Shown here piece after piece: positions 28,682 through 44,814 of a stretch of 64,000 bases of DNA. Every line of letters starts with the position of its first letter. Within the stretch, counting starts at the first letter, position 1. The DNA lies in the NCBI GenBank assembly GCA_963718615.1, contig OY970368.1:5856001-5920000 (forward strand). Direction: 5' to 3'. The notes beneath the pieces were generated by a model. It was given only the letters and a program-made list of their open reading frames with translations. It was not told the DNA's origin and made no database searches. The stretch is from an uncultured cyanobacterium (GTDB lineage: Bacteria; Cyanobacteriota; Cyanobacteriia; PCC-9006; JAAUQQ01). The translations under genes were made by a program, and so were the position numbers.

Positions 28682-30712
28682 TTATCTGCTACAGTCTACA
28701 AGTCTTGACGCGACAGAAGACAACGGAAACGGAATCCACGCCACCGCACCAAGCCTCCACACAAAACGAACGACGACAACAAAAGGGAGGTGGCCTCTCG
28801 GTGCATTCAAGTCAAAATTCAGTTGTGAATATGACAACCAGTCACCCCCCTCCATTTTCGACCGCCAACCGACCTGAACGCCAAACTTTTCCCAATCCTT
28901 ATTATATTCGGTTGGGCTACCGCAGCTTTCCCAGATTTTCTTTTGCACCGTAAAGCCAAACCTACCCTGACTATACGTCACCCACAGGCGATCAATATTA
29001 CCTAGGTCCAAGCAGGGGAATTTCTGGATGTCTTCTACTCGCAGCCAACCTTTCTTCTGCCGATTCATCACTTCACACATCCGGTCAGCGGTTTCTTTGT
29101 CAGCCGCTTTCCAGTCCTTGGCCGCGAGCAAGTCGCGCAGTTTGACATAGTAGTTCGCCCCAAACCGTGCTGAACTGAGGTCGTCGGTGTCAAGCTGGGG
29201 TTGCTTCGCAGCGGCTTGTTTTTGTCGTTCTGCTTCGGCTTGTTTCTGTCGCTCCGCCTCCCGTTGCCGTTGGGCTTCCGCTTCCCGTCGTTTATGCTCC
29301 GCTACAGCCTGTTCTCGCTGCTTTTGTTCTTGCTGTCGTCGTTCTTGCTGCTGCTTATATTTCACCTCCTTTGGCGCTAACAACGGTTGTTCAATTTGGG
29401 CTACGACTTCATCGCTTAAGCCCAGAGATGCCTGAAACTGTTGCAAGCCCTGCCGCACAAAGTCATCCAGTGGATAGCCTGCTGCTAGCGCGCGCTCGAA
29501 TTCTTTCCCGTAGCGCTGTCTTTTTTTATGATCCTGCTCGTGCCGCTGTTGTGCTTCTGCTTCCTGGCGCTGGCGGTCGGCTTCTGCCTGCTGCTGGGCT
29601 TGGGCCTGCTGCTGGCGCTCTAGCTCAGCCACATATCCCGCCAAATCATAGCCATCCAACACCGCCCACTCGATCTGGGCCACATCCTCCGGCTTCAGCC
29701 GCAGGTGGGCGCGATAGTCTTTCAGATCATCCAGCGTGCGCGAACCCAAGGGCGATTCCTGCGCCAAGCACTGACGGAACGTCTCCTCGTAGTCCTGCCG
29801 CTTGCGCTGATACTCCCGATAGGGCTTCAGCACCTCCGCTTCAATCGCCTCCGCCTCCGCCTCAGCAATCTGTAGCTCCACCCGCAGCCCCATCAACAAT
29901 CGCTGCGCCGGAATCGTAAACACGCCTGCTGTCGCTCGACGCTCGACTTCCTTGCGATACTTCAACCTCGGGTCATCCTGGGGAGACCGGGCCAACCGAA
30001 TCTGATACCCTTCCCCCTTGAGATGAATAATGTCAGGACTCATCACCGGCGAAGTCTCCCGGACCTTGCGCCCCGCATAGCGGTGCAGCTCATCCACCGT
30101 GATCACCCCATCCCCATCGGCATCAGCGGCTCCGCTGGCAATCCCCTCCACCAGGTAGCGGGTGTAGATCGACAACTCCGCGCCCTTTTCTTCAAAGGAA
30201 TAATCCACCGCACTGGTCGAAGTCAGCACCACCCGCCCCTCGGCCCCGAGCTGCTCCTTCAGATCAATTGCGCCATCATCCCGCGCCACCAGCTCCCCAA
30301 AGGCCCCGCTAAAGCAGCAGTCGAGAATCAGCACCTGATATTTAGCCTTGCAACCGCGAATGCAGTCATGCAGAAACCGAGCCGGGGTGGCCGTGGAGCG
30401 GATTAGACCATGGCGCTGTTTTTCCGTATTCGCAGCGGCAAAATAGAGATCGCGGCGATCGTCCTTCACCCCATGCCCCGAAAAGAACAACAGCACCAAA
30501 TCCTCCGGCTGCCGATCCTGAAACCACAGCTCAATCTCCCGCGCCATCTCCGGCTGGGTCGGGTTAACCACAGGTTTCGCTTCATCAAAGCCCCCCATCT
30601 GCGGATTCAGCAACACCTCCCGCAACGCCGCCACATCCCGAGACGCAGCCGGTAACGGTTGCAACCCCTCGCCATAGGTATCAACGCCGATTAAGAGTGC
30701 ATACTTTCCCAT
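28682..30712 (-). CDS. Caspase-like (C14) protease with helical/coiled-coil linker and C-terminal GUN4-like domain
   Basis: ALLIGV..Y, FFSGHG (His), LDCCFSG (Cys), EF-hand-like DADGDGVITVDEL; GUN4-like LRDLLAAKDWKAADKET, FPC.DL..IDRLW..YSQGRFGF.VQK.IW, APRGHLP. Confidence 0.9.
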   Translation of the reverse strand: MGKYALLIGVDTYGEGLQPLPAASRDVAALREVLLNPQMGGFDEAKPVVNPTQPEMAREIELWFQDRQPEDLVLLFFSGHGVKDDRRDLYFAAANTEKQRHGLIRSTATPARFLHDCIRGCKAKYQVLILDCCFSGAFGELVARDDGAIDLKEQLGAEGRVVLTSTSAVDYSFEEKGAELSIYTRYLVEGIASGAADADGDGVITVDELHRYAGRKVRETSPVMSPDIIHLKGEGYQIRLARSPQDDPRLKYRKEVERRATAGVFTIPAQRLLMGLRVELQIAEAEAEAIEAEVLKPYREYQRKRQDYEETFRQCLAQESPLGSRTLDDLKDYRAHLRLKPEDVAQIEWAVLDGYDLAGYVAELERQQQAQAQQQAEADRQRQEAEAQQRHEQDHKKRQRYGKEFERALAAGYPLDDFVRQGLQQFQASLGLSDEVVAQIEQPLLAPKEVKYKQQQERRQQEQKQREQAVAEHKRREAEAQRQREAERQKQAEAERQKQAAAKQPQLDTDDLSSARFGANYYVKLRDLLAAKDWKAADKETADRMCEVMNRQKKGWLRVEDIQKFPCLDLGNIDRLWVTYSQGRFGFTVQKKIWESCGSPTEYNKDWEKFGVQVGWRSKMEGGDWLSYSQLNFDLNAPRGHLPFVVVVRFVWRLGAVAWIPFPLSSVASRLVDCSR

Positions 30713-30768: not shown

Positions 30769-31200
30769 CTACTCAGGCTTGTTTGGTCCAGACGGGTTTT
30801 GCTGCTCCCGTATCTTAACCCGCAAGTTTGCCAGCCGCTCAATCGTGTCCGCCGCCTGATCCAACTCCTGTTTGTTGCGATACTCGATGTTGTAGGTCAT
30901 GCCATCCATTTCGCCCGACAGCGTTAGAGTCTTGCCATACCGCAAATTTCCCAGGTAATCCATCAGCTTCCCCAGATTCTTGCGGTTAATCTCTGTGGTC
31001 AGCACTCCCATTAAAAACGCTGCCGCCCCAGATTTAGCAGCCTCCGGGATATCCTCCTCACGGGCCAGACGAGCAGATTGTACCCAGTCGCCAGACTCCA
31101 GTTCGTCGGCGATCGTTAACAAAAAACTTTCTAACTCAACCCGATCAAGGTCAAGACCAGCTTCGCTAAAGTCGATTAAGACAGCAGACGCTTCAGGCAT
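30769..31200 (-). CDS. EACC1-like small adaptor protein upstream of the caspase
   Basis: LD...LE.....L..EL, IPE.AKS..AFL.GVLT.EIN..N pattern typical of small proteins that precede cyanobacterial caspases. Confidence 0.6.
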   Translation of the reverse strand: MPEASAVLIDFSEAGLDLDRVELESFLLTIADELESGDWVQSARLAREEDIPEAAKSGAAAFLMGVLTTEINRKNLGKLMDYLGNLRYGKTLTLSGEMDGMTYNIEYRNKQELDQAADTIERLANLRVKIREQQNPSGPNKPE

Positions 31201-31392: not shown

Positions 31393-32589
31393 CTATTGGT
31401 CATGCGACCCTTCACCACTTCTTAAAGTCTTAACCCAGCGAATTACATCCTCAGGCAAACGCCGCGCCCAAGCACGACAATAATCAATTCGAGCCCTAGG
31501 CTCCTGCCAAACACTAAAATAAAAGCGATGGTCATACTTGCGAAAATGAGGAAAGAAAAACCCTGCCCCATAATCAACCTGAGGACCCACAAGTCGTTGA
31601 AGAATTTGACAGGACAGAACTTCTAACTCAGCGTCCTGGTATTGCTCTTGATAGGGTCCGGCGATAATCGCTTGAGGAACTTCTAAATTAAATAGAATTT
31701 CAAGTAGCTTGAGTTGCAGTAAAAGCAATCGTACACACTCGAACATTTCTACGGTTTCTAAAATGCTTTTCCAGTCAAGACAAGGGTGGCTCTTCACTAA
31801 TGCCATAGCATCAACAAGCTGGCATAGCTTTAACTTTAAACAACAATGGTCCTTAGCTAGATATAAGCACAATAGAACAAAGAGATCTTCCGGTTGCAAG
31901 CAAGGAACTTCAAGATTTTCCCCTTCCGATAGGTTTAATTGCAGTTGAGTCAACCGTGCGATCAAAAAATCAGCACCCAAGACCTGTGAAAATTCTGGAG
32001 GAACCAAGGACTGATGCAGATCGACCTCAACCTTGAGCTGCGGGTGGAAAAAGCTCTCCTCCCAACCATAGGACTCCTTACGGGAGTAGCCTTGAGATAA
32101 GAGAAACTCACCAGCCTGCCTAAAGTCCTCAGGCTTAACCAGTAGATCCAGATCCGTAAACTTTCTTAGGCCTAGATCCTGATAGGCAAGTTGAGCAAGG
32201 GTAGGACCTTTATAAGGAATCGCAATAAGGTTCCTTTGCCCCATACCCTCCAAGAGTCGAGCCAATTCTCGGGTCAGAAAAACCGTTCGCATTCGATTGG
32301 CCAGAAAACTAGTCTGTAAAGTTCTAGAAACGGATGATGGCAACACATGCGGATAAAAGACCCTGAGATTATGACTCACTAACGCCGTTACACCCTGTTG
32401 AAGTGCCAAATGTAAGAAAGCTTGCCAATCGAGATCACGAAACAACTCAGGTTCTAGCTCTTGGGCTGGGGCAACCGAGAACGTACTCAAGGATAGCCGA
32501 AAGAGAAGTTGCCATTCCTGGCTTAGGTGAGGATTCTGCTGGAATGGATTGTAGGGAGTTGGGCGATCGCCTGACCCAGTCGTTTTCAT
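31393..32589 (-). CDS. Nucleotidyltransferase (NTP_transf_5-like), intact motif
   Basis: YKGPTLAQLAY.D.GLRKFTDLDLLV, VDLH, LCQLVD. Confidence 0.85.
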   Translation of the reverse strand: MKTTGSGDRPTPYNPFQQNPHLSQEWQLLFRLSLSTFSVAPAQELEPELFRDLDWQAFLHLALQQGVTALVSHNLRVFYPHVLPSSVSRTLQTSFLANRMRTVFLTRELARLLEGMGQRNLIAIPYKGPTLAQLAYQDLGLRKFTDLDLLVKPEDFRQAGEFLLSQGYSRKESYGWEESFFHPQLKVEVDLHQSLVPPEFSQVLGADFLIARLTQLQLNLSEGENLEVPCLQPEDLFVLLCLYLAKDHCCLKLKLCQLVDAMALVKSHPCLDWKSILETVEMFECVRLLLLQLKLLEILFNLEVPQAIIAGPYQEQYQDAELEVLSCQILQRLVGPQVDYGAGFFFPHFRKYDHRFYFSVWQEPRARIDYCRAWARRLPEDVIRWVKTLRSGEGSHDQ

Positions 32590-32669
32590 ATTAAAAATTC
32601 AATATTATTGACGTCAATCTTTGAACGATTAAATACCATCGACGCAAAATCTCCCTAGACAGCCTCCTT

Positions 32670-33833
32670 TTAAGCTGAGTATGGATTTCCCCAATTATTT
32701 CGAAGCCTACGCCAAAAATGCCCAAGCTGACGCTGTAGGCCATAGGGCACAACCGTAAAGATAGATTTAATTTGCCAGCTATCCCGAAGAAACTGTAAGA
32801 ATGCTAACCAAGATTCATTCTGTTCTAAGACCGAGGCTTGCCGCTGATATTGAACATATCGACGCACAATTCGAGCCATAAGATGATAATTCTGATTCAC
32901 GACAAACATTGTCTCCCATTGCTCAAGTCTTGTAGGAACTGCGGATTCAACTAAATTCGACCATTTTGTACAATCTGGTAGAGAAATTTCTAACTGGCGT
33001 AGATCAGAAAAGAGTAATTGTAGAGGCGCTAAAAGCTTATACTGGATTGCAGACTTCAGCAAATCTTGCCCATCGACTTCACTGGCTTGTAATAGCGCAA
33101 TAAGTTCTACAAAATCTAACAGTAAAGATTCCCGGTTATCGACCATAGCCACAACTCGATACAAAATCTGATCCGTCAGAGACCAAGTTCGGCTGCTGAC
33201 TTCGCCCATGTTTCCATCTAAATCATAGGCAATCGAACGCTCCCAAAGCTTCTGCACAATCGCGGGAGAAGGACTCCAATGACTCAACTGACGATACAAC
33301 AATAACGGTGGATAGGTATCATGGATAAACCAGAGACACCCTGCCCACCGTAGTGTCTCTAGGGGATTTAAGGAATTGCTCTTCCATCCCAACTGCTGTA
33401 ATTGGGTTGCGATCGCCGTACAGTGTTCGAGGTGAATTTGGAACCGTAGATCCCTGATCGGAGCAAGACCCTTATCATAGGGGTTTTCAGCTTGCCATAA
33501 GCCTCGGTTGAGCCAAACAATCGGAACTTTAGACTCATGACAAAATTGAAACAGAGATCTTAACGCTAACAGAATCGTCTGGTTTTTACACCAGGAAAGT
33601 CGTTGTACTCCCTTAATTCGAGGTAGAAGAGGGGTTTGAATCCCTGAGGCTATGAGTTTTCTATGAATGTTTGGAAGGAGCTGATAGGTTTGTCCATCCA
33701 GATCTTCAAAGTCAATTTTATTTAACCATTTTTTCCATAAAATATCTGCCGAGACATCAGATGAATAAAGAAACTTTAATAGATATTGATGTTCTAAATT
33801 CAAGTTCTTCAACAAAGACTGCATGATAGCCAT
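32670..33833 (-). CDS. Nucleotidyltransferase-like protein with degenerate active site
   Basis: W..W....DFEDLD...YQLLP, RIKGV.R.SW.KNQ N-terminus of the same family; the KG and DxD positions read NRG and DLR. Confidence 0.65.
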   Translation of the reverse strand: MAIMQSLLKNLNLEHQYLLKFLYSSDVSADILWKKWLNKIDFEDLDGQTYQLLPNIHRKLIASGIQTPLLPRIKGVQRLSWCKNQTILLALRSLFQFCHESKVPIVWLNRGLWQAENPYDKGLAPIRDLRFQIHLEHCTAIATQLQQLGWKSNSLNPLETLRWAGCLWFIHDTYPPLLLYRQLSHWSPSPAIVQKLWERSIAYDLDGNMGEVSSRTWSLTDQILYRVVAMVDNRESLLLDFVELIALLQASEVDGQDLLKSAIQYKLLAPLQLLFSDLRQLEISLPDCTKWSNLVESAVPTRLEQWETMFVVNQNYHLMARIVRRYVQYQRQASVLEQNESWLAFLQFLRDSWQIKSIFTVVPYGLQRQLGHFWRRLRNNWGNPYSA

Positions 33834-33905
33834 GATGGATAGAAGTTTACAAATGCTAGAAGTTTAATGATGCGGGACTAAAGCCCCTACAGAATAGGAA
33901 GATCG

Positions 33906-35615
33906 TTAAGCAGATAGACTATCGGGTGAAGTGGATGCTTGAGGAGAGAAGGCTGAATAGGGGAGGAGTTGGCGATCGCGCAACTCATAAATCTCGTCTG
34001 CCTCTTCAAGTACTTCTGGATTATGGCTAATTATTAAGATTGCAGGCATATTTTCCAACTGTCTCAGATTCTTTAGAAGGGTTTTGATGGCTTGAATATC
34101 AAGATGATTGGTCGGTTCGTCTAGGAGTAGTAGCTTGGGCTGAGTGATTAGGGCGCGGGCGATCGCCAATCTCTGACGCTGCCCTCCCGAGAGTCGCACA
34201 CCCCGTTCTCCAACTAACGTCTCATAACCTAGCTCCAAACCACAAATAAACTCATGGGCCATTGCAAGCTTACAAATCTGAACGAGCCGCTCATCATCAA
34301 TCCCAGAAACACCATAAAGAATATTTTCCCGAACCGAACCCTCAAAAATAGAACCATCCTGCATAACAACTCCAATCTGTTTGCGAAAATGTCTAATATC
34401 GAGAACTTGATAGGGATAGCCATCGGCCCAAAGACTGCCGCAAGTCGGCTCATGGAATCCAATTATTAGCGAGAGCAACGTACTCTTGCCTATGCCATTC
34501 GGGCCAATAATCACAATCACTCTGCCTGGCCAAGTCACTAGATTAACATGATGGAACAATGCTGCACTCGATTGACTAGAATAGGAGAATTCTACATCTC
34601 TCAATTCTATATGACCTGTAAAATCAATCTGTGTTTTTCCCTTATAAGGCGTGAAAGAGACTTCCGAAAACATTACCTCATAGAGCTTTAAGAGTGACTC
34701 ATGACCTTCAAGAATATCAGGTAAAAGCTGGAGAACTCGGAACGCATGTTCTTTTGCCAACCAAGCTGTACCCAAAAAGGCCAAGGTCTCTCCAGGCGTT
34801 GTTTGCCCCTGACTCAACAGAAAGCTGCTCGTTACCAAGACAAGCATGATTAATGTCGTCATCATCAGGTTATTCACTTGACCGTGAAATGCACCCAGCC
34901 AAACAAAATTCAAGTGGGTAACGTGTTCTTGTCGGACAAGCTGCATTTGTCGGGAAATTTCTTCTTCTTCTGCTCCGCGTAAGCGAGTCAGATCGATTTG
35001 TTGAAAAACGAAACGAGATCCTCGAGCATAGTCTTCACAAGCGCGATGATATCGACTAATTCGCCCTTGAATACGTTTCCCAATCCAGAAGTTTACACCA
35101 TAGACTAAGGGAATTAGAATAAAGGCTAACAAAGATAGAATTAAATTTAGTTTAACGAGAATGCCAACAAAAATAATCGTTATCAGAAAAGAGGGAATGA
35201 CCTGAGAGATCAGGTTAATCATCATGACATCTAATCGACGAGTATCTTGGTTGATGATAGTATGGAGTCGATTTTGATCGGCTTGGCTATAATAAGTTTT
35301 TGAAAAGCTATATAATCGCCTTAGTAGAGCTATCCAAAACTTTCGAATTGCGGTCTTACCAATTTTCAGCATATTGTAGCGGCTCCAAAGAATCGCCACG
35401 CTATTAAGCAGATAGAGAAGCATAATGCTGCCGGTTGCTAGCCCTAGTTGTTTATAATTCTGGCTAGGCAAAACTGAATCAGCAACGTACTTCATGATTA
35501 GTGGAATCGGAAGTAGGATTAAAACCTGAAAAACTGATATCAGAATAGAGAAGGCTAGCCAAACATAATGACCTCGATAAAACTGGAGATAGTACAGCCA
35601 TGGATTTGATTTCAT
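33906..35615 (-). CDS. ABC exporter, fused TMD plus ATPase (no C39 peptidase domain)
   Basis: About six hydrophobic helices; GPNGIGKST, LSGGQRQR, LLLDEPT, IISH. Confidence 0.93.
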   Translation of the reverse strand: MKSNPWLYYLQFYRGHYVWLAFSILISVFQVLILLPIPLIMKYVADSVLPSQNYKQLGLATGSIMLLYLLNSVAILWSRYNMLKIGKTAIRKFWIALLRRLYSFSKTYYSQADQNRLHTIINQDTRRLDVMMINLISQVIPSFLITIIFVGILVKLNLILSLLAFILIPLVYGVNFWIGKRIQGRISRYHRACEDYARGSRFVFQQIDLTRLRGAEEEEISRQMQLVRQEHVTHLNFVWLGAFHGQVNNLMMTTLIMLVLVTSSFLLSQGQTTPGETLAFLGTAWLAKEHAFRVLQLLPDILEGHESLLKLYEVMFSEVSFTPYKGKTQIDFTGHIELRDVEFSYSSQSSAALFHHVNLVTWPGRVIVIIGPNGIGKSTLLSLIIGFHEPTCGSLWADGYPYQVLDIRHFRKQIGVVMQDGSIFEGSVRENILYGVSGIDDERLVQICKLAMAHEFICGLELGYETLVGERGVRLSGGQRQRLAIARALITQPKLLLLDEPTNHLDIQAIKTLLKNLRQLENMPAILIISHNPEVLEEADEIYELRDRQLLPYSAFSPQASTSPDSLSA

Positions 35616-35619
35616 AAAG

Positions 35620-36501
35620 CTATCTGTTATGAATGGGAACAGTTCTATGCATTAACGACAATCCTGAGTCAATCTTTAGAACCGTTCCTGTCGTATATTG
35701 TGAAAAATAGTTTGATGCTAAATAAATGGCTGCACGTGCTATATATTGAGGAGGAATTTTTGTCCCATAAAGTTGACCTTTATGATCAGGTATTGGAGTA
35801 TTATTGTCATCCAGACCTATCCAACCAGGTGCAATACCATTAACTCGAATATTCATCGGTGCTAGTTCAACCGCAAGTTCTTGGATAATCATACCGATCG
35901 CAGCCTTAGAAGAGCTATAACAGGCATAGCCTAAAGGGATCCATTGGTGGATAGAAGACAGAAAAATCATGTTGCCCATGATCTGCTTTTGTATCATTTC
36001 TTGAGCCAATAGATGTGTCAGGTATACAGGGCCAAGAATATTAGTCTGATATGTTGTCTGCCACTCAGCAAGAGCAAATTTTTTGATGGAGCTGGGTAAG
36101 GTAATGCCTACATTATTGATTAACACATCAATAGTGACATCTATTTCCGTTAAGCCTTGAAAGACTTGATCAATTTGTGCGAAGTTTGTAATGTCACAGA
36201 CAAATCCTTGACAGAAGCCTCCTATCGCTTTTAAGTCTTGCTCAAGCTTTTGCTTAAGCTCTTGGTCGATTTCGATAAAATAGATATTGGCTCCTTGTTG
36301 TATGCATTCGAGGGCGATCGCCCTACCAATATTACGTCCAGCTCCCGTAATCAAAACATTTTTTCCCTTCAATAAACTTCCCATGGCTACGAGCTGAATA
36401 TCTGGCGGATATTGAATGGAGCAAACGTTTGTTTGACTTTGAGATTCTGGCGGTGACATAAAAGCGTGAACAGCAGCTCTAATTCTAGGAAATGTAAACA
36501 T
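35620..36501 (-). CDS. Short-chain dehydrogenase/reductase
   Basis: TGAGRNIG, NNVG, SS, YSSSK, NGIAPG. Confidence 0.9.
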   Translation of the reverse strand: MFTFPRIRAAVHAFMSPPESQSQTNVCSIQYPPDIQLVAMGSLLKGKNVLITGAGRNIGRAIALECIQQGANIYFIEIDQELKQKLEQDLKAIGGFCQGFVCDITNFAQIDQVFQGLTEIDVTIDVLINNVGITLPSSIKKFALAEWQTTYQTNILGPVYLTHLLAQEMIQKQIMGNMIFLSSIHQWIPLGYACYSSSKAAIGMIIQELAVELAPMNIRVNGIAPGWIGLDDNNTPIPDHKGQLYGTKIPPQYIARAAIYLASNYFSQYTTGTVLKIDSGLSLMHRTVPIHNR

Positions 36502-36546
36502 AATTGATTTCCCTATCTTCTATTTCCTATTCTCTTTTATACATTT

Positions 36547-39027
36547 TCAACTTACATCATGTTTTGACAAAACTTTCCGAATTAACCCCAAGTAGCTCTC
36601 TATCATCTGCTTCTCTCGAAAGACGGTCTCTGCTCTTTGCTTACAAGCCGCTCCAAGCTGCGGCAGCAGCTCTGGCCGATTGGCCCAACTTGCTAGGGTG
36701 TCTGCTAATGCTCTAACTGTCGCTTCAGAATCAACCGCCGGGTCCGGTAGTAAGACTCCAGTATTTCCTAACTCTTCAGGGATTCCGCTGACGGCAGAGG
36801 CAATCACAGGCACTCCTTTAGCCATGGCTTCCATAATTGCAAGGGGCATGCCTTCAAATTGAGAAGGTAAAATAAAGATATCTGCCGCATCTAGTAAATC
36901 GGGTATATCGTTACGCTCACCGAGAAATTGGATGCGATTTTGGAATCCTAAATCCCTGACTAGTTTTGTGAGACGGGCATCATCGTTGCCAGTACCTGCC
37001 CACAAAAAGTGCAGATAATTAAAGACTGCATGCTCCTGTAACTGCTGAAGTGCTTTTAGTTGATATTGATAGCCTTTACAAGGATCTAATCGAGCAGTTG
37101 TAAGACAGGCTATTGCATCGTGAGGCACATTCAAGCTTTCACGAATTCTCTTACGATTTTGCTTGTCTTTTTGTTCAAAATAAATATTAGGCCTACCGTT
37201 ATAGATAACTTGTCCAAAATTCTGATTTAGAGCGAATTTTTGATGCAACAAATCAAGATTTTCCTGAGAAACTGTAACAATAGCTTCTGCATGCTTATGA
37301 ATTTTAGAGATTCGTTCGATATAAGGACTTAATAGATCAGCCCAAGTCCTTGTTACACAGTGAATGACTACAATAAAAGGGATTTTTAAATCTCGTGCAA
37401 CTTCCATCGCCGTTAAATTGGATGAAGGTTCCCCATTAGAAAAAACTATTAGTTCTGGCCTGATCTTTTGAAAAATTTTGAAGGACTCAGACCAATCGCA
37501 AAGCTCACGATCCGTAGTGATTGTGAGATATTGACCGGGCTTGAGCCAATGGTGATAGATCCCTAGTTGCTCTCGTTCCAGAAAAAGAGAATCATCTAAC
37601 TGAGGCTGCACACAAGAAATCTGAAAATTCTCTTCGGACAATGCTAAAAGTAGACGATGATTCCACTGCCCAACACCATAGATCCCCGTCCGATTACTAT
37701 AGAGTAAAATGTTTCTGGCCGTAGAAGATTTTTCTCCTTTCAATGATTCACTAGAACAGCTAGGTTTAATAACACCTAGGTTTACAAGCTGCTGACTATT
37801 TTTAAAACAAATAGAGATTTCCTGGTCATAAAGGCTGAGATTATGACATTCACGAAGTTTTTTAGCGTATTGTTTATATTGAAATGCTCCTTCATGATGT
37901 TCCTGTCTAAGAACTTCGCGTTCAACATAATCAATAAAGTTTCTAATATATTTAAAATGCAATACTGCTCCAGTTTCAGTTGAAATTTGATCTTCAAATG
38001 TCCCGATAAAATGTTGACCACCACTCAATAACATAGAAGAATGGTACTTGATGAGCGGAATTTTATTGAGATAATAATCACCCTCCTCTCCAAATACTCT
38101 TGCTCGCATTCCTCCTGTATAGCGTATTTGACCTGTATAGGGAGGCTGGGTTTCAGTAATTTTTCTATGGAAAGGCACTTTATCAAAATAGGGACAAACA
38201 TCTAAAAAGTCCTGACCTGCTTGATAGGTTGTTTCCTGGATTGGGCGATCGCTATACATATCCAACAAAATAGCAGGAAAAGCTCGCTTGTATTGACGAT
38301 CTAAATCTGCACAAAGATCTTTGATGCTACGTGTTTCACAATCGGGATAGATAAGTACTTCATCGGCATCAATCGTAAGACACCAGTGGTCAATTCCATA
38401 TTTCTGAAGTAAAAGTTCAAACCAAGCAGAACCGAAGTTGACCTGGTTAAATGAATAATTGCTGTTCCAAACCATTACATCAGCTTGGGTTTGTAAATAA
38501 GAGCCGGTCTCATCACTTGAGTTGTTGTTGACAATCAGAAACCGATCTACACCCTTTTGACGATAGTATTGAAGCAGATAAGGTAGCCGAAGACTTTCAT
38601 TTCGCACTACAATACAGCACAAAATATCATCCTGTTTAATCTCTAGGGCTTCCCCACTCATTCGTCGTAAGTCGTAGTGCTCAAATGCAGCCTCAAATCC
38701 CTTGACCTTAATCAGCAGATGACTCAGTTGCTTATGAAATTGCTCAACATTAGAATAATAAGATAATGCCTGACTATAATGTTGAATTGCCTCTTCCAGG
38801 CATCCTTGCTTTATGAGTAAAGGTCCACAGCGTGCGTATGCTTCCAGGCAGTTAGGTTGGAGTTGAATAACCTGACGATAGCCCGTGATCGCTTGTTCAA
38901 TGCGCCCAGTCAAACTCCAGGCATGAGACAACTTCAATCGAGCCTGAGCCTGCTCGGTGAGCTCTTGTTCTCCAAACGTCTTCCCACAAAGCTTTTGGAT
39001 ATCGTCAAATGAATCTAGCATGGCCAT
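36547..39027 (-). CDS. TPR + GT2-like + GT4 multidomain glycosyltransferase
   Basis: N-terminal TPRs; VRNE..RLPY....YR..GV, WCLTIDADE (GT-A); C-terminal GT-B with PSQFEGMPLAIMEAMAKG. Confidence 0.88.
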   Translation of the reverse strand: MAMLDSFDDIQKLCGKTFGEQELTEQAQARLKLSHAWSLTGRIEQAITGYRQVIQLQPNCLEAYARCGPLLIKQGCLEEAIQHYSQALSYYSNVEQFHKQLSHLLIKVKGFEAAFEHYDLRRMSGEALEIKQDDILCCIVVRNESLRLPYLLQYYRQKGVDRFLIVNNNSSDETGSYLQTQADVMVWNSNYSFNQVNFGSAWFELLLQKYGIDHWCLTIDADEVLIYPDCETRSIKDLCADLDRQYKRAFPAILLDMYSDRPIQETTYQAGQDFLDVCPYFDKVPFHRKITETQPPYTGQIRYTGGMRARVFGEEGDYYLNKIPLIKYHSSMLLSGGQHFIGTFEDQISTETGAVLHFKYIRNFIDYVEREVLRQEHHEGAFQYKQYAKKLRECHNLSLYDQEISICFKNSQQLVNLGVIKPSCSSESLKGEKSSTARNILLYSNRTGIYGVGQWNHRLLLALSEENFQISCVQPQLDDSLFLEREQLGIYHHWLKPGQYLTITTDRELCDWSESFKIFQKIRPELIVFSNGEPSSNLTAMEVARDLKIPFIVVIHCVTRTWADLLSPYIERISKIHKHAEAIVTVSQENLDLLHQKFALNQNFGQVIYNGRPNIYFEQKDKQNRKRIRESLNVPHDAIACLTTARLDPCKGYQYQLKALQQLQEHAVFNYLHFLWAGTGNDDARLTKLVRDLGFQNRIQFLGERNDIPDLLDAADIFILPSQFEGMPLAIMEAMAKGVPVIASAVSGIPEELGNTGVLLPDPAVDSEATVRALADTLASWANRPELLPQLGAACKQRAETVFREKQMIESYLGLIRKVLSKHDVS

Positions 39028-39030
39028 AAC

Positions 39031-39750
39031 TTACTGCTCCGGTAAGGTATTGCTTGAGGACATTCTATCTCCTGCACGACGGCGATCGAGCGAAGCCTTA
39101 ATTGCATGCAGGTATTGATTGCGATCCTCCCGATTGGTTAGGCCTACATTCGTTTTATGTAATCGCCGCTTTGCTAGGACATCAGGTAATGTCAAGCTTT
39201 TTAAGCTTGCATCCTGAGCACGAATTAACCACTCTACAAATTCCCCCGCTGTCAAACACTCGTTAAAATTTCCAACGGTTTGAAAGACCGAGTGACGAGC
39301 CATCATGGTTGTAGCATTATGGCCTACTACTGGAGATGGCGGACAATAGAGGCGAGTCTTTGCTTCCGGTTCTAAGTCTGGACTTACAAAACACTGAAGA
39401 TGGGTGAAAATCAGATCCGTAGAGGGCTGATCAAGAATGGCTTGCACTTGCCGTTCTATTTTAGTCGGCATCCACAGGTCATCTGCATCTAAAAAGGCTA
39501 TCCAGTTGCCACTGGCCCTTGCAAGTCCAAGATTGCGAGATGCAGGTGCACCTTGGTGAGAATTTTGAATTGGAGTAACTTGGGGGAATTGGCTGGCGAT
39601 CGCCAAACTCCTATCCGTAGAACCATCGTCTACCACAAGAATCTCATGCACAGGAAAACTTTGAGCCAAGACGCTTTCAATCGTCTGTCCTAGATAGCGT
39701 TCTCCGTTATAAACAGGAATAATGGCACTAATGGAGAGTTTGTTGTTCAT
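39031..39750 (-). CDS. GT2 glycosyltransferase
   Basis: ISAIIPVYNG, VDDGSTD, RN.G, FLDADDLW. Confidence 0.9.
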   Translation of the reverse strand: MNNKLSISAIIPVYNGERYLGQTIESVLAQSFPVHEILVVDDGSTDRSLAIASQFPQVTPIQNSHQGAPASRNLGLARASGNWIAFLDADDLWMPTKIERQVQAILDQPSTDLIFTHLQCFVSPDLEPEAKTRLYCPPSPVVGHNATTMMARHSVFQTVGNFNECLTAGEFVEWLIRAQDASLKSLTLPDVLAKRRLHKTNVGLTNREDRNQYLHAIKASLDRRRAGDRMSSSNTLPEQ

Positions 39751-39777
39751 TTTTCTCGAGCAACCAAGGAAACATAA

Positions 39778-40557
39778 TCAATTTATCAATTCACTACCAT
39801 GTCCAACATATGCCGAAACACTTGGAAAGTTAGGAGGTGGGGGAACCTGAAGCGTAGCATCCTGTCGTATTCGATTGAGACGACGCTTATAAATTTGAAC
39901 AGTGCCTAACTCGATTTGATTTTTGTTGCGAGTCATATTCGCTTCATGTCGTTGATAATGCAGGACTACATCCTCTATCTCAAGCTTCCATACTCTCTTT
40001 TCCCAAGCCCTCAAAAACCAGTCAATATCTTCTCCATACAGCAACGTCGAATCAAATAAACCAACCCGCTCGAACACGGATTTGCGATAGAGTGAGCTAC
40101 CTATGTTAACAAATCTATAAGTTTCTGAAGAAAACGCTCTATTTTCTGCTTCTTGATTGAGAGATTCGGTTGATCTGGCCTTCCAAACTTTCTGAAGTAT
40201 CAGTCCTTGAATAATATCAAACGATGGGTTTTGCTGTAAGCAAAGTGCCATCTTTGTGAGAATTTTATCTCCCCACAGATCATCAACATCAAGAAAAGCA
40301 ATCAAGTCTCCACTGGCAACTTGAATGCCATGATTTCTAGCAGCCGCAGGTCCTTGATTTTCCTGATATAAATATTTAATTTCATCTTGAAGGCTGAGTG
40401 CAATGTTCTCAGTGGAGTCAGTCGAACCATCATTCACAACGATAATCTCCAAAGGAGAATACCTCTGAGCTTGAATATTCTGAATGGTACCTCGCAGAAA
40501 TTTCTCGCCGTTATAAACTGGAAGCACAACGCTAATTAGGGGTAGAGGCACAGTCAT
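39778..40557 (-). CDS. GT2 glycosyltransferase
   Basis: ISVVLPVYNG, VNDGSTD, FLDVDDLW, GEDIDW. Confidence 0.9.
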   Translation of the reverse strand: MTVPLPLISVVLPVYNGEKFLRGTIQNIQAQRYSPLEIIVVNDGSTDSTENIALSLQDEIKYLYQENQGPAAARNHGIQVASGDLIAFLDVDDLWGDKILTKMALCLQQNPSFDIIQGLILQKVWKARSTESLNQEAENRAFSSETYRFVNIGSSLYRKSVFERVGLFDSTLLYGEDIDWFLRAWEKRVWKLEIEDVVLHYQRHEANMTRNKNQIELGTVQIYKRRLNRIRQDATLQVPPPPNFPSVSAYVGHGSELIN

Positions 40558-40559
40558 TT

Positions 40560-41657
40560 TTATTGCCTCTCTAGAAGGAATCTTTTGATCAACTGGTGTA
40601 TTGCTTGGCTGTCTGTTCCAACATTCAGATAGAAACAGGGCAACTGAGACAATGTTTGTGTAATTAAGTCACAGGCGGCTTTACCGGCCCCCCCTAACTG
40701 CATAATGGTACTGGGTATCAATGCCACAAGACTCTCCTCTAGCGTGGCCTGAGTCATGGTAGTATTCAGTTTTCCGGTCACTCGCGGAATGAAAATAGCG
40801 TGAATTGGAGCAGATTTTAGAAGTTTTTCTGGCATCCACTCATGAATAAAATAAACGGCCTTCTCTTTATCTAGTTGTTCTGGATTGCTAATGTAGGGCT
40901 TCAGAAAGGGTAAGCGATCGAGATCGTTTGCGTTCTTTTTGCCCGTATTATAAATACTAAATACAGTTGGCTTAGGTTCTGCTGTGATCAAACAATAGTC
41001 ATCGCTGACATACCTCAAGTCCGAATTCAAACTGGATAATGCCGTCGTTGACTTTCCCGATCCCCCTTTTCCAACTAACAGTATACAGCCCTCAGGATAT
41101 CCAATTGATGCTGCATGCACTAGCTGAATCTTTTGCGCACTTAACCATACATTCAAAATACTTTGAAAAGGTGCCCCCCTTTCCCAATAGGGAATTAAAG
41201 TATGATCTTCAACCCAATACAGCGCAAGATTCTGTTGTTTATCTACAATTACAAGCGCGTTTGATTCCCATTGCCGAGCCGTGTAAATACGTTCATTGAC
41301 AAAACCACGGACCTCACCTCGCTTCTGATATTGGTACTCTTCCCAGACTGGTGCAGGTCGGGAGATGCCAGTTTCTTGGCTGCTGATGAGGCAAATGGTG
41401 AGGTCAGGAGTTTCAGCCGGTGAGACCTCTAGATGGGCGATCGCCCGCGTTAACAAATTAATCAGCGCTTCCCCGGTAAAGCGTAAACAAACAATAAAAT
41501 TAGCAATTTGAAAGTACCGAACTGTTAAGTTTTGACTTTCTAGTTCTGCCTTCTGATAGGTTTGATAAACCTGCTCAAAATATTCGATTGAGCGCGATTG
41601 CTGCAACTCTGCGCTGCTTTCCAATAGTGAGCTAGTCATTGAGTCTTGAGGGATCAA
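40560..41657 (-). CDS. HPr-kinase-like (PEPCK/HprK fold) serine kinase
   Basis: VHAAS, Walker A GKGGSGKSTT, YVSDD. TTG start overlaps the pqqD stop; alternative ATG at 41639. Confidence 0.85.
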   Translation of the reverse strand: MIPQDSMTSSLLESSAELQQSRSIEYFEQVYQTYQKAELESQNLTVRYFQIANFIVCLRFTGEALINLLTRAIAHLEVSPAETPDLTICLISSQETGISRPAPVWEEYQYQKRGEVRGFVNERIYTARQWESNALVIVDKQQNLALYWVEDHTLIPYWERGAPFQSILNVWLSAQKIQLVHAASIGYPEGCILLVGKGGSGKSTTALSSLNSDLRYVSDDYCLITAEPKPTVFSIYNTGKKNANDLDRLPFLKPYISNPEQLDKEKAVYFIHEWMPEKLLKSAPIHAIFIPRVTGKLNTTMTQATLEESLVALIPSTIMQLGGAGKAACDLITQTLSQLPCFYLNVGTDSQAIHQLIKRFLLERQ

Positions 41658-42100
41658 GCAGCTACATCCTTGGATACATTAGGCCAGCCTGACTCATCTA
41701 CATCATGAATAGGATCGACCAGCAACAACTCTTGCATATCGTTATACTTATTGAGTTCAGCTGGAATGAAGGCTAATCGATTATTACTCAAGTCTTGACT
41801 CAAATCTAGGCTCTGATCTGGAGCGGCTATCCCATCACTCTTTGAAACTAACCCTTCGTTTTCTAAAGACAGAACTAAAGCAGTGAGCGATGCCTGAATT
41901 TCCTCGGGTGAAGATATATATTTTTTCTCAAGTCTATCGCTGATCTCAGCCAACGAGCAGCCATGAATTAGCATTTCCCAAATCTCCGCGCCAGTCTCGA
42001 CAAGACTATAATAGTCTCCCGTCATCATGTTGATAATGACGACTTCTCCTGAGATAGTTTCTTGCAAAACTTGGGGAGCAACTTTAAATCTAGATTCCAT
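41654..42100 (-). CDS. PqqD-family RiPP recognition element with C-terminal peptide tail (DMQELLLVDPIHDVDESGWP)
   Basis: E.I.GEVVIIN..TG.YYSL..TGAEIWE.L..G......I...L...Y.......L..EGLV RRE fold, then a low-complexity linker and a compact tail. Confidence 0.85.
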   Translation of the reverse strand: MESRFKVAPQVLQETISGEVVIINMMTGDYYSLVETGAEIWEMLIHGCSLAEISDRLEKKYISSPEEIQASLTALVLSLENEGLVSKSDGIAAPDQSLDLSQDLSNNRLAFIPAELNKYNDMQELLLVDPIHDVDESGWPNVSKDVAA

Positions 42101-42498
42101 GTATTATATAAACTCCAAAAACACAAACCCAAAAAACGACTTGTCTCACTTCAATCCATAACTCTTAATGAATAGTAATGGGAAATGAGCAGTAATGGGA
42201 GCTTAAAATAGCCTAGAGAATGCAGAACAATTATTTTAGGCGATAATACAGGCTAACCGTAATAAAAGCAACAATATCGCCTGTTTTATTAAATAATGTA
42301 AAATTGGCCTGAGATTAATTTCACATTATTGCTCGTCATGATGTACAAGAAAGAATAAGATTTTGCGGCACAAGGCGTGATAGCACTCCTTCTGTCAGGG
42401 CAAGACTATGTCTCATTGCGACACCAAGTGTGCCGTCTTTTAAGGTTCTCTAAGATACAGTGTGTTTTGCGGTTGATTTCCTTACACAAAAAAGTTGT

Positions 42499-43779
42499 AT
42501 GATCGATCTTTTTGCGATCTGTCTTTTCGTTCTATTTTTGATTATCTGTATTCCGATTATACGAATTTTCTGGAAATTTATTATACTATTACGCTCTTTT
42601 AACCGCTCTCCCATAGATTTGAGTAGTTATCCCAAAGCTGCAATTGTCCTTAGCATTCGTGGCGTTGATCCATCTTTGCAATCATGTCTTGAAACGTTGT
42701 TCAATCAAGATTACCCCGATTATTATGTGTCTATTGTTGTAGATAGTGAAGAAGGTGAGGCTTGGCAAGATGTTAATTCGATTGTCCGTCAAGCTGCTCA
42801 AAGGAATATCCAAGTGTCTCCCCTACGCGATCGCTCTAACGCTTGCAGTCTTAAATGTAGTGCTCTAGTCCAAGCAATTTCAGAGCTGGATTCCTCCTAT
42901 GAAATTATTGCCATTATCGATGCAGATGTGGTCACTCACTCTTCTTGGCTGAGAGAACTTGCGACACCGTTAATTGACAATAGTCAGATCGGTATCACCT
43001 CAGGCATCCGGTGGTATGTACCGACTCTTAAAGCAATGGGTTCACTCAAAATGGGCTCGGTAGTTCGTTACCTATGGAATGTTTCTGCCGCGATCAGTAT
43101 GTTTTATTACAACTGTCCTTGGGGCGGATCTATGGCAATGCGGCGATCGCTCTTGCATGAAGGAGGACTTTTAGAGCTTTGGAAAAGAGTTCTATCCGAT
43201 GACAATACGGCTGCCACAACGGCTCAAGGTCTTGGACAGACTATCCAGTTTGTTCCTAGTGTCATTATGCTCAACCGTGAATCTTGTGATTTGTTGGGAT
43301 GTTGGCGCTTTATAAAACGGCAATTTCTATGGTCATGCCTCTATCATCCCCAATGGAATGAAATCATTGTGCGGGTATGGTTGAGAATTATTCTGCTTGG
43401 CATAGCGGCGATTCTTCTGCCCATTGCTCTGTTTACGCAGCAGTGGTCCACGGTATTGTGGACCCTAGGGGGAGTGCTTCTCTATAGCCTGACAATTATT
43501 GCTGCATTGGTCATCTCAGAAGTCGAAATTCGTAAGATTGTACAGTTTCGAGGGGAGAGGATTGAAAACTTTTCGATTGCCCAGATGATTCCCCTTGTTT
43601 TTCCCCTTGTCCTCGCCCATATCGTCTCTTTGGCTGGAGCGGTTGCAGCAACGACTATGCACCAAGTTGAGTGGCGAGGAATTAGGTACGACATCCAGAA
43701 TCCATTCCAGGTAAGCCTTCTCAACTACAAGCCCTATGGCACTGTATCTGTTGAGCGCAGTAATCGATCCATTCTGTAG
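42499..43779 (+). CDS. Membrane GT2 glycosyltransferase (ceramide glucosyltransferase/HpnI-like)
   Basis: N-terminal TM, LSIRGVDP.L..CL..L..QDYP, CSLKCSAL, DAD, WGGSMA, SDD, RQ..W, C-terminal TMs, WRGI.Y. Confidence 0.85.
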   Translation: MIDLFAICLFVLFLIICIPIIRIFWKFIILLRSFNRSPIDLSSYPKAAIVLSIRGVDPSLQSCLETLFNQDYPDYYVSIVVDSEEGEAWQDVNSIVRQAAQRNIQVSPLRDRSNACSLKCSALVQAISELDSSYEIIAIIDADVVTHSSWLRELATPLIDNSQIGITSGIRWYVPTLKAMGSLKMGSVVRYLWNVSAAISMFYYNCPWGGSMAMRRSLLHEGGLLELWKRVLSDDNTAATTAQGLGQTIQFVPSVIMLNRESCDLLGCWRFIKRQFLWSCLYHPQWNEIIVRVWLRIILLGIAAILLPIALFTQQWSTVLWTLGGVLLYSLTIIAALVISEVEIRKIVQFRGERIENFSIAQMIPLVFPLVLAHIVSLAGAVAATTMHQVEWRGIRYDIQNPFQVSLLNYKPYGTVSVERSNRSIL

Positions 43780-43812: not shown

Positions 43813-44814
43813 TTATATCTCTTCCCTGTCACTATGATTAGGTAAATTATTCTGATTACTGTAGCGAAGAGAAACTCTCAATTTGAAGATTTCTATGGGA
43901 GTTAGCCAACGCTGTGTCTTTTTCATTTGTTTATAGTGTACGCATGACGTGCAGGGAATATCTTCTCTTTCCTCTTTTTTCCCCAACAACATATCTCTGG
44001 CGTAGGAGATTTTGGAACCCGTAAGAACTTCCTCTAAATCATCTTTAAACGCATTGCCAAAATCTCCCCAAAAATTTACACAACATCCCAATACACGGCC
44101 ATCCCAGTTGATTTGAGGAATATTCCAGAGCTGACTACAGGCTTCCTGATGCAAGATATCTTCTGAGAGCGTCTCTACGGCTATCGACTCCTCACATTCA
44201 CCCGAAGACAAATCTTCATCCCAGGAAGGTTTTAGAAAGAATCGCATCCCCAGCGACTTCGCTAAATCATGTGCTTTTTGAATCTCATGTTGATTATGCT
44301 TAAAACTAACAAACTGCCAGCCCAGATCAGGAAATAGAGTACGATACTTTTTCTTGTAAAAGTTTAATCTTTCGATGTTTGCTATAACTCTATTGAAGTC
44401 TCCTTCCCTTCGATACAAACTATAAGTTTCTGGGGTTGCACCGTCGATTGAACAAGTGATTGCGTAAAACTTATATTTACACAGTCCTTCCAAGACTTCT
44501 TCTTTTACCGTATTAAAGTTTACGCCATTCCTGGCTGTCAATCTAATGCTGTGCTCATGTGCGTATTTCATAATGTCAAGAATCTGCGGATTTAAGAATA
44601 TCTCTCCCCAGTTTGACAGTTCTATGGACAGGATTTGAGGATTTTTATCCAATAAAGTTTTAAAATCATCGAATTTGAGAAATCCTCCTCCAAGATGCTT
44701 CTTGATTTCGCCCATGGCTGTCGGACAAGAAGGACATTTTAATTGGCAGTTTGACGATGCTTCTAATCGAATATTTTGAAATTGATTATGGGATTGCATA
44801 GATTTTGTTGTCAC
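43813..44814 (-). CDS. Radical SAM protein with SPASM/Twitch domain
   Basis: CQLKCPSC (CxxxCxxC), NWGEIFLN, SIDG; C..LW....INWDG.V.GCC...GN...C..C. Confidence 0.9.
   Translation of the reverse strand: MTTKSMQSHNQFQNIRLEASSNCQLKCPSCPTAMGEIKKHLGGGFLKFDDFKTLLDKNPQILSIELSNWGEIFLNPQILDIMKYAHEHSIRLTARNGVNFNTVKEEVLEGLCKYKFYAITCSIDGATPETYSLYRREGDFNRVIANIERLNFYKKKYRTLFPDLGWQFVSFKHNQHEIQKAHDLAKSLGMRFFLKPSWDEDLSSGECEESIAVETLSEDILHQEACSQLWNIPQINWDGRVLGCCVNFWGDFGNAFKDDLEEVLTGSKISYARDMLLGKKEEREDIPCTSCVHYKQMKKTQRWLTPIEIFKLRVSLRYSNQNNLPNHSDREEI

Follow-up and report, generated by a model that had tools for sequence, protein, structure and literature searches.

The linear polyphosphorylated peptide (LPP) gene clusters of Bacillota are the closest known system to the gene described here, which lies in a 64,000-nucleotide stretch of DNA from an uncultured cyanobacterium (assembly GCA_963718615.1, contig OY970368.1, positions 5,856,001 to 5,920,000; hereafter the window) and encodes a recognition element for peptides made on the ribosome and modified after translation (RiPPs) that carries a leader-like tail of its own. 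As set out in the text of Popov et al. (PMC13381572; Nat Commun 2026), the LPP clusters (LppA/K/B/S/D/N) contain a discrete RiPP recognition element (RRE), LppB, together with an HprK-like kinase (LppK), an NTP-transferase (LppN), an MsbA-like transporter (LppD) and a SpI-like peptidase (LppS). The clusters lie in glycosyltransferase-rich capsule loci, and their separate precursor has the pattern YxxPxVLxHQxIxFETxxS, Ser3 of the core being polyphosphorylated. LppB is insoluble without its leader, and the stretch of the leader beyond the motif does not touch the RRE and has been put forward as the part that addresses the enzymes. Lasso and LPP leaders are recognized by RREs through a [Y/W]xxPx[L/V/I/F/A] motif; in crystal structures [Y/W]xxPx[L/V] lies in the cleft flanked by β4 and the helices, and the antiparallel sheet is continued by the residues after it. 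Where the text of that paper uses the word 'fused', it refers to laboratory tags only (PMC13381572).

The protein of the window, 148 residues long, consists of a PqqD-type RRE, a linker and a tail that runs from F111 to A148 (Table 1). A first-pass annotation of the same DNA had proposed this layout, with a leader-like tail at 41654-41770 after a 25-residue linker, and the open reading frame (ORF) and the Pfam match bear out both layout and coordinates: Phe111 starts at base 41770, and the stop codon ends at base 41654. PF05402 (PqqD) matches residues 19-85 with an E value of 1.6e-13 and 51.2 bits, against a Pfam cut-off of 23.4. Two AlphaFold models give the RRE the topology β1-β4, α1-α3, β5 at a predicted local distance difference test score (pLDDT) of 83-97, and this predicted fold is in keeping with the definition of the winged-helix RRE, three strands then three helices, in the text of PMC12710340. 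The linker has a mean information of 1.27 bits, an occupancy of 0.62 and a pLDDT of 54-69, and across the family the span between positions 85 and 111 measures 18-32 residues (median 25). Its combined serine and threonine fraction is 0.18 versus 0.12 in the RRE, a figure that is not decisive for the linker as an alternative acceptor region.

The tail is a conserved hallmark of the family. A word-indexed search placed 280 of 308 candidates at E<=1e-3, and homologues among the 120 matches listed are 141-158 residues long with a query coverage of 91-100%. An exhaustive scan of 1.84 billion representatives (50%-identity clusters) gave 4895 matches at E<=1e-3, of which 1865 pass E<=1e-10; each of the 150 matches listed from it reaches query residue 135-148. 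The first-pass annotation had named conservation of the tail across homologues as a check, and it is found: in a 250-sequence alignment D129, P130, G138 and W139 are each invariant (250/250) and H132 is kept in 249, and mean information is 3.75 bits over residues 121-140, compared with 2.51 over 108-120, 2.45 in the RRE and 1.67 in the last eight residues. The motif residues F111, P114 and L116 are present in 236, 242 and 225 of the 250 sequences, respectively, and the family consensus reads FxxPxLxKY[ST]DMQELLLxDPIHDVDxxGWP. The aromatic-x4-Leu spacing with its proline shifted by one, noticed in the first pass, is right for the window protein (P113/A114), one of the few to depart from FxxPxL, but not for the family, in which the motif is exact. 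After GWP there follow 2-91 residues (median 8) that are rich in Pro and Lys across the family. In the RRE-tail proteins of two loci, L066 and L017, this end is duplicated, with a second WPxPK- or WPxRN-type unit, which hints at a repeatable site. The tail segment matches no Pfam family at E<=10, no NCBIfam model and no PDB sequence. Motif strings brought up only irrelevant matches in the literature search, and a published description of the RRE-tail architecture was not found in the literature searched, the supplements of PMC13381572, which could list related clusters, lying outside that search.

A pattern scan in which every species was represented by one genome yielded 552 pattern matches, 328 of which encode a relative; 80 of these 328 loci, many of them cut by contig ends, were kept for the neighbourhood counts given below. 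The family loci span at least 15 phyla. Acidobacteriota, Nitrospirota, Chloroflexota, Cyanobacteria, Gemmatimonadota, Desulfobacterota, Methylomirabilota, Binatia and Lentisphaerae are represented among the kept loci, as are Verrucomicrobia, Planctomycetes, Bacteroidota, Ignavibacteriae, Actinobacteriota, Proteobacteria, Omnitrophota and one Eubacteriales metagenome-assembled genome. Closer to the host the distribution is patchy, since a full-length match with the tail occurs in only one of 40 relatives of the host genome (G025), and in seven others the proteins consist of the RRE alone. A second full-length copy, in a related genome (G025:C24:25502-25915, minus strand), contains an in-frame TAG. 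The locus inspected among the seven RRE-only relatives, L088 (G033:C32:41568-44798), is a canonical lasso locus; it encodes a B1 of 104 residues, a B2-like protein of 152 residues and, as C, an asparagine-synthase-like protein, and the B1 is a tail-less kin of the window RRE.

That the tail starts with a leader-type motif predicted to dock on the protein's own RRE is well supported by structure prediction and coevolution. AlphaFold was run on the window protein with a 34-sequence alignment and on a homologue, P0018, with a 148-sequence alignment. The FxxPxLxKY segment is placed with a pLDDT of 92 and 93, respectively, and in both models a three-residue strand (117-119) comes directly after the motif Leu. 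The invariant part, residues 121-140, has a pLDDT of 56-78, about 60, and is undocked in both models. Of the tail docking that the first pass had suggested looking for with AlphaFold, the motif segment is recovered, but the 20-mer is not. Coevolution analysis by mutual information with average product correction (329 sequences, effective number 204) ranks V34-N117, E82-K118 and D29-Q123 first to third in the whole protein; the index sums of V34-N117 and D29-Q123 are 151-152, and sums near 151 point to antiparallel pairing of 117-123 with β4. Residues 111-123 are on these grounds predicted to dock in cis. Mean-field direct coupling analysis (DCA), restricted to 114 well-occupied columns, places these three pairs at ranks 15, 17 and 27 of 6014, with S71-F111 at rank 26.

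The models agree with the crystallographic description of leader binding, and comparison with solved structures leads to the same class of protein. Foldseek gave six matches at E<=1e-3, all of them lasso B1-leader complexes (5v1v, 5v1u, 6jx3), headed by the TbiB1-leader complexes 5v1v/5v1u at E 2e-6, with a TM score of 0.87-0.93 on the target for RRE-leader complexes. The family profile matches TbiB1 (2.5e-15), PbaB1 9x90 (1.2e-12), LppB 9x8z (7e-5) and also TfuB1; these matches to solved RREs end by position 91 and never enter the tail. Three points temper the docking picture. The mean-field DCA is noisy: in a run on all columns, which was set aside, the gap-rich columns of the linker and the ends prevailed, and the 114-column rerun is still topped by artefact pairs (F5, P94, D135). 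The docking geometry derives from pLDDT, DSSP and coevolution rather than from coordinates. Coevolution, moreover, cannot separate docking in cis from docking in trans between subunits.

The RRE-tail gene heads an operon on the minus strand (31393-42100) whose intergenic gaps range from -4 to 80 nt. Family matches of the adjoining kinase are weak (TIGR04355, 2.3e-5; TIGR04352, 4.2e-5; Hpr_kinase_C, 2.8e-3). Its profile aligns H..GKS..DD with HPr kinase/phosphatase 1knx, and H181, K202, D219 and D220 are invariant in 27 of 27 aligned sequences. The protein is thus predicted to be a kinase bearing the His-Lys-Asp-Asp set of HprK-like RiPP kinases. Homologues of it occur in 74 of the 80 loci, and GT2 glycosyltransferases, often fused to the kinase, in 75. 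The ATP-binding cassette (ABC) exporter, which is without a peptidase domain, has homologues in 40, many loci being cut by contig ends. The last two genes are PF14907-type nucleotidyltransferases. The 398-residue product is the only above-cut-off PF14907 match in the genome. The 387-residue product goes undetected by Pfam and NCBIfam, and BLASTP between the two window paralogues found no match; it is assigned to the PF14907 type because its homologues match in family scans, scoring to E 8.5e-46, with 17 of 18 sequences in its alignment (A2) matching NTP_transf_5 and the window copy the sole miss. Homologues of this paralogue occur in 44 loci.

When all ORFs of the 80 loci were clustered, no other family was found in more than 13. 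Accessory genes occur in subsets, such as a sulfotransferase (L012:2799-3653; 4 loci), a GlcNAc 2-epimerase-like gene (L003:11414-12730; 13 loci) and a GT4 glycosyltransferase (L051:9583-10791; 11 loci). The radical SAM/SPASM protein that flanks the operon, a possible partner enzyme in the first-pass annotation, is ruled out as a cassette member, a homologue being present in one locus of 80. The caspase-like peptidase downstream of the operon was considered as a missing protease and rejected (homologue in 0/80 loci).

Table 1. Features of the RRE-tail gene, its operon and flanks in the window, and kinase-glycosyltransferase fusions in related loci
Feature	Position	Strand	Size or residues	Basis or remark
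RRE-tail ORF	41654..42100	-	148 aa	
RRE (PqqD-type winged helix)	41846..42100	-	residues 1-85	Pfam, AlphaFold, Foldseek, profile matches
Variable linker	41771..41845	-	residues 86-110 (25 aa)	low information, low pLDDT
Leader-like docking segment FIPAELNKYN (predicted)	41741..41770	-	residues 111-120	conservation, pLDDT, coevolution
Invariant segment DMQELLLVDPIHDVDESGWP	41681..41740	-	residues 121-140	conservation; undocked in models
Variable C-terminal end NVSKDVAA and stop codon	41654..41680	-	residues 141-148	
HprK-like P-loop kinase (predicted)	40560..41657	-	365 aa	start overlaps RRE-gene stop by 4 nt
GT2 glycosyltransferase	39778..40557	-	259 aa	PF00535 E 7.7e-32
GT2 glycosyltransferase	39031..39750	-	239 aa	PF00535 E 6.7e-33
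TPR-GT2-GT4 fusion glycosyltransferase, accessory	36547..39027	-	826 aa	Pfam; homologues 20/80 loci
Short-chain dehydrogenase, accessory	35620..36501	-		adh_short E 2.8e-42; homologues 7/80 loci
MsbA/HlyB-type ABC exporter	33906..35615	-	569 aa	ABC_membrane and ABC_tran only, MsbA-related NCBIfam matches
Diverged PF14907-type nucleotidyltransferase paralogue	32670..33833	-	387 aa	homologues' family matches
PF14907 nucleotidyltransferase	31393..32589	-	398 aa	NTP_transf_5 E 2.4e-50
Membrane GT21/HpnI-like glycosyltransferase	42460-43779	+		divergent flanking gene; homologues 0/80 loci
Radical SAM/SPASM protein	43813-44814	-		flanking; homologues 1/80 loci
Caspase-like peptidase C14 with EF-hand match	30001-30712	-		just downstream of operon
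ORF without any family	30769-31200	-	143 aa	just downstream of operon; homologues 0/80 loci
HprK-GT2 fusions	L009:6916-8709, L017:11707-13515, L037:8500-10317, L058:4660-7227, L074:12321-14396, L076:12787-14619			

Gene fusions tie the parts of the cassette together. All six long kinase ORFs checked have the arrangement HprK-GT2 or HprK-GT2-GT2, and two proteins of about 785 residues, P0155 and P0219, consist of three RREs followed by HprK. Six others (P0121, P0142, P0148, P0238, P0245 and P0259) carry two or three RREs in tandem. In these tandem and fusion proteins every RRE is trailed by its own, looser [FY]xxPx[LVIF]-like segment; the full invariant motif stands once per protein in most of them. 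These examples come from the exhaustive search; the word-index search gave no longer fused homologue at E<=1e-5, which is weak evidence.

A separate precursor was sought at several levels. The first pass had reported none in 42100-42460, and this is confirmed: the only same-strand ORFs there are of 26 and 27 residues and lack a [YFW]xxPx[LV] motif. The RRE-tail gene is single-copy in its own genome, and in about 33 of 74 measurable loci the gap upstream of it is no more than 110 bp. Conserved small ORFs in the 80 loci proved to be only other-frame shadows of conserved genes. Among 5.8 billion proteins searched for short tail-only forms one was found, of 66 residues, on a 505-bp contig. Neither a B2 protease nor a C macrolactam synthetase was found in the operon or among the conserved clusters of the 80 loci, to which the genuine B1-B2-C locus L088 bears no close likeness, and no alternative acceptor gene is conserved in these loci. 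The RRE-precursor fusion postulated in the first pass accordingly stands in so far as the leader motif is in cis and no separate precursor was found, but the rest of the tail as a modified core is not established.

The reading preferred here, which we regard as evenly balanced between right and wrong, is that of a self-leadered RRE that presents its tail to the enzymes of the cassette, most likely as their substrate. The PqqD-type groove, as in lasso B1 proteins and LppB, would be filled by the protein's own FxxPxL, tethered by the linker of 18-32 residues, and the residues right after the Leu would add a strand to β4 as a leader peptide would. Docking would thereby fix the invariant 20-mer adjacent to the RRE and leave it free, to be engaged by the HprK-like kinase, the PF14907 nucleotidyltransferases and two or three GT2s, alongside the MsbA-like exporter. 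By analogy with phosphorylated and glycosylated lasso peptides and LPPs, the tail would most probably be the acceptor as well, which would make the protein a precursor fused to its own recognition element, to which a phosphate-linked sugar would be added. An acceptor role is favoured by the absence of any other conserved acceptor gene, by the habit of characterized relatives of modifying the motif-bearing peptide, and by the repeated WPxPK-type end in L066 and L017. On a more tentative level, at clearly less than an even chance, the 148-residue protein might be the ribosomal precursor of an undescribed product class, its tail phosphorylated by the kinase and extended with a sugar chain by the PF14907 enzymes and GT2s, and the product handled by the MsbA-like pump. 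A glycoconjugate pathway primed by a peptide or protein would then exist in at least 15 bacterial phyla, with no leader peptidase and possibly a non-Ser acceptor. Counted from the motif Leu, the invariant Asp129 stands 13 residues on, which is also the distance from Val-11 to Ser3 in LppA (PMC13381572), and by this spacing it falls where LppA bears its phospho-Ser; the match may be chance or a lead but is no evidence.

A number of observations speak against the preferred reading. Since the tail holds no conserved Ser, its role as a substrate is unproven. The serine counted among the core residues in the first pass, S137, is not retained (Ala in 117, Ser in 48 and Thr in 47 of 249); the residue before DMQ is Ser or Thr in 192 of 239 sequences, Asp or Glu in 29 and, for the window protein, Asn; only 14 of 248 sequences end in Ser; and a Ser falls somewhere within 117-140 in 223 of 329. 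The characterized kinase relatives are serine-specific, PadeK and ThcoK according to the text of PMC9266682 and LppK, which rejects Thr and Tyr, according to that of PMC13381572. The near-invariant 20-mer is also unlike LPP cores, described there as hypervariable. No peptidase family is conserved among the ORF clusters of the 80 loci, and the archaeal-type signal peptidase I model TIGR02228 has no above-cut-off match in the genome, only three weak matches outside the window; with no conserved protease, a product would therefore remain part of the 16-kDa protein, barring cleavage by a protease encoded elsewhere. The invariant motif has an internal place in P0155 and P0219, with two further RREs and the kinase behind it.

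Several of these observations would be accommodated if the tail were a built-in activator or adaptor, the cis leader locking the RRE in a 'leader-bound' state and the 20-mer recruiting or switching on enzymes that act on another acceptor, which could be a peptide or protein from an unlinked gene or else a glycan or lipid that leaves through the MsbA-like pump. Invariance across at least 15 phyla is expected of a docking motif read by conserved enzymes, and the lack of a conserved Ser for a Ser-specific kinase family, the lack of a conserved protease and the internal position of the motif in the triple-RRE kinase fusions all fit. Engineered fusions of leaders to LctM and LynD reportedly make these enzymes leader-independent. 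LPP and paeninodin clusters occur in polysaccharide loci, and the partner or substrate of LppN is given as unknown in the text of PMC13381572. However, no gene for such an acceptor is conserved in the 80 loci, all relatives of the enzyme set whose experimental characterization is described in the texts cited modify a peptide that bears the RRE-binding motif, and the WPxPK-type repeats of L066 and L017 look like multiplied acceptor sites. The adaptor role is judged unlikely, though it deserves to be kept in view.

The tail might instead be an autoinhibitory leader mimic, as the first pass had also suggested, filling the groove in cis until a true precursor encoded elsewhere displaces it and so gating the enzymes. 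A groove-filling motif on a flexible linker would suit such a device, as would the ability of lasso-type RREs to bind non-cognate [Y/W]xxP leaders (PMC13381572, text). It is nonetheless improbable: a candidate trans precursor turned up neither in the window nor in the genome nor in the 80 loci, a tethered ligand at high local concentration would be hard to displace, and it would be left unexplained that conservation within the protein is highest in the 20 residues behind the mimic. Docking in trans, the FxxPxL of one molecule binding the RRE of another so that dimers or chains scaffold the enzymes, is a slimmer prospect still. Coevolution gives no verdict between cis and trans, the linker is long, and the tandem proteins have one leader-like segment per RRE, but both AlphaFold monomer runs place the segment confidently in cis, for which the linker length suffices. 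A chance resemblance or functionless low-complexity extension, finally, had in its favour only the imperfect motif of the window protein (P113 instead of P114) and is refuted by the four invariant positions in 250 sequences and by an information content above that of the RRE domain, which leaves it with a negligible probability.

The self-leadered RRE bears on how such systems are found. Genome mining for RiPPs irrespective of class relies chiefly on RRE domains and assumes a separate precursor nearby. The present family is a natural design with the leader built into the RRE, which would explain precursor-less 'orphan' loci of PqqD, kinase and glycosyltransferase genes, in the thousands. It provides a defined 38-residue candidate acceptor or docking peptide, with a 20-residue motif conserved like an active site yet outside Pfam, NCBIfam, the solved structures and the literature searched. 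It also extends an enzyme set of the LPP/paeninodin phospho-glycosylation type from Bacillota to cyanobacteria, Acidobacteriota, Nitrospirota, Chloroflexota, Gemmatimonadota and others. The operon, of kinase and sugar-transferase type, is widespread and unstudied, and is relevant to RiPP and glycoconjugate specialists alike.

Among known arrangements, the engineered LctM and LynD fusions share with this family a leader tethered to its recognizer, but they are laboratory constructs, whereas the present fusion would be natural and widespread. The HPr-rel-A system (TIGR04352 kinase A, TIGR04353 PqqD chaperone) likewise pairs a PqqD chaperone with an HprK-related kinase outside lasso clusters; however, the scores here are 22.8 against a cut-off of 200 and 18.7 against 35, and the TIGR04353 model, of 74 positions, has no tail. 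The lasso B1 proteins (TbiB1-TbiA 5V1V/5V1U, TfuB1 6JX3, PbaB1 9X90) are the best matches of the RRE in structure and sequence, and agree with it in the class of motif and in the mode of binding predicted. They differ in being about 85-120 residues long, in binding a separate precursor and in working with a B2 protease and a C cyclase, and the lasso PqqD models remain below cut-off (NF033536, lasso_PqqD_Bac, 43.6 versus 80; NF033530, 32.2 versus 70). Paeninodin (PadeK/ThcoK) and pseudomycoidin (PsmK, PsmN) offer, as described in the text of PMC9266682, an HprK-like His-Lys-Asp-Asp kinase and a PF14907-type 'nucleotidyltransferase' that adds hexose to phosphate, but their substrate is a separate lasso precursor, modified at its C-terminal Ser, and there is no lasso machinery here.

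The likeness to the LPP clusters, as these are presented in the text of PMC13381572, goes furthest. RRE, HprK-like kinase, NTP-transferase and MsbA-like transporter are all in the window operon and recur in related loci, so that four of five enzyme types are common to both systems, the peptidase being the one not found here. A macrolactam cyclase is lacking in both, and both have glycosyltransferase-rich loci. An aromatic-xxPx[L/V] motif is followed in each by a sheet-extending strand, predicted in the present case, and then by a conserved stretch without RRE contact. In the window protein, however, the motif is in cis on the RRE protein, whereas LPPs have a separate precursor; the motif aromatic is Phe rather than the Tyr or Trp of lasso and LPP leaders; the downstream sequence is DMQELLLxDPIHDVDxxGWP as against HQxIxFETxxS; and neither a conserved phospho-acceptor Ser nor a SpI-like leader peptidase accompanies it. 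GT2s are core members here and are often fused to the kinase. Whereas LPPs and paeninodins are stated in that text to be restricted to Bacillota, the self-leadered RREs span at least 15 phyla.

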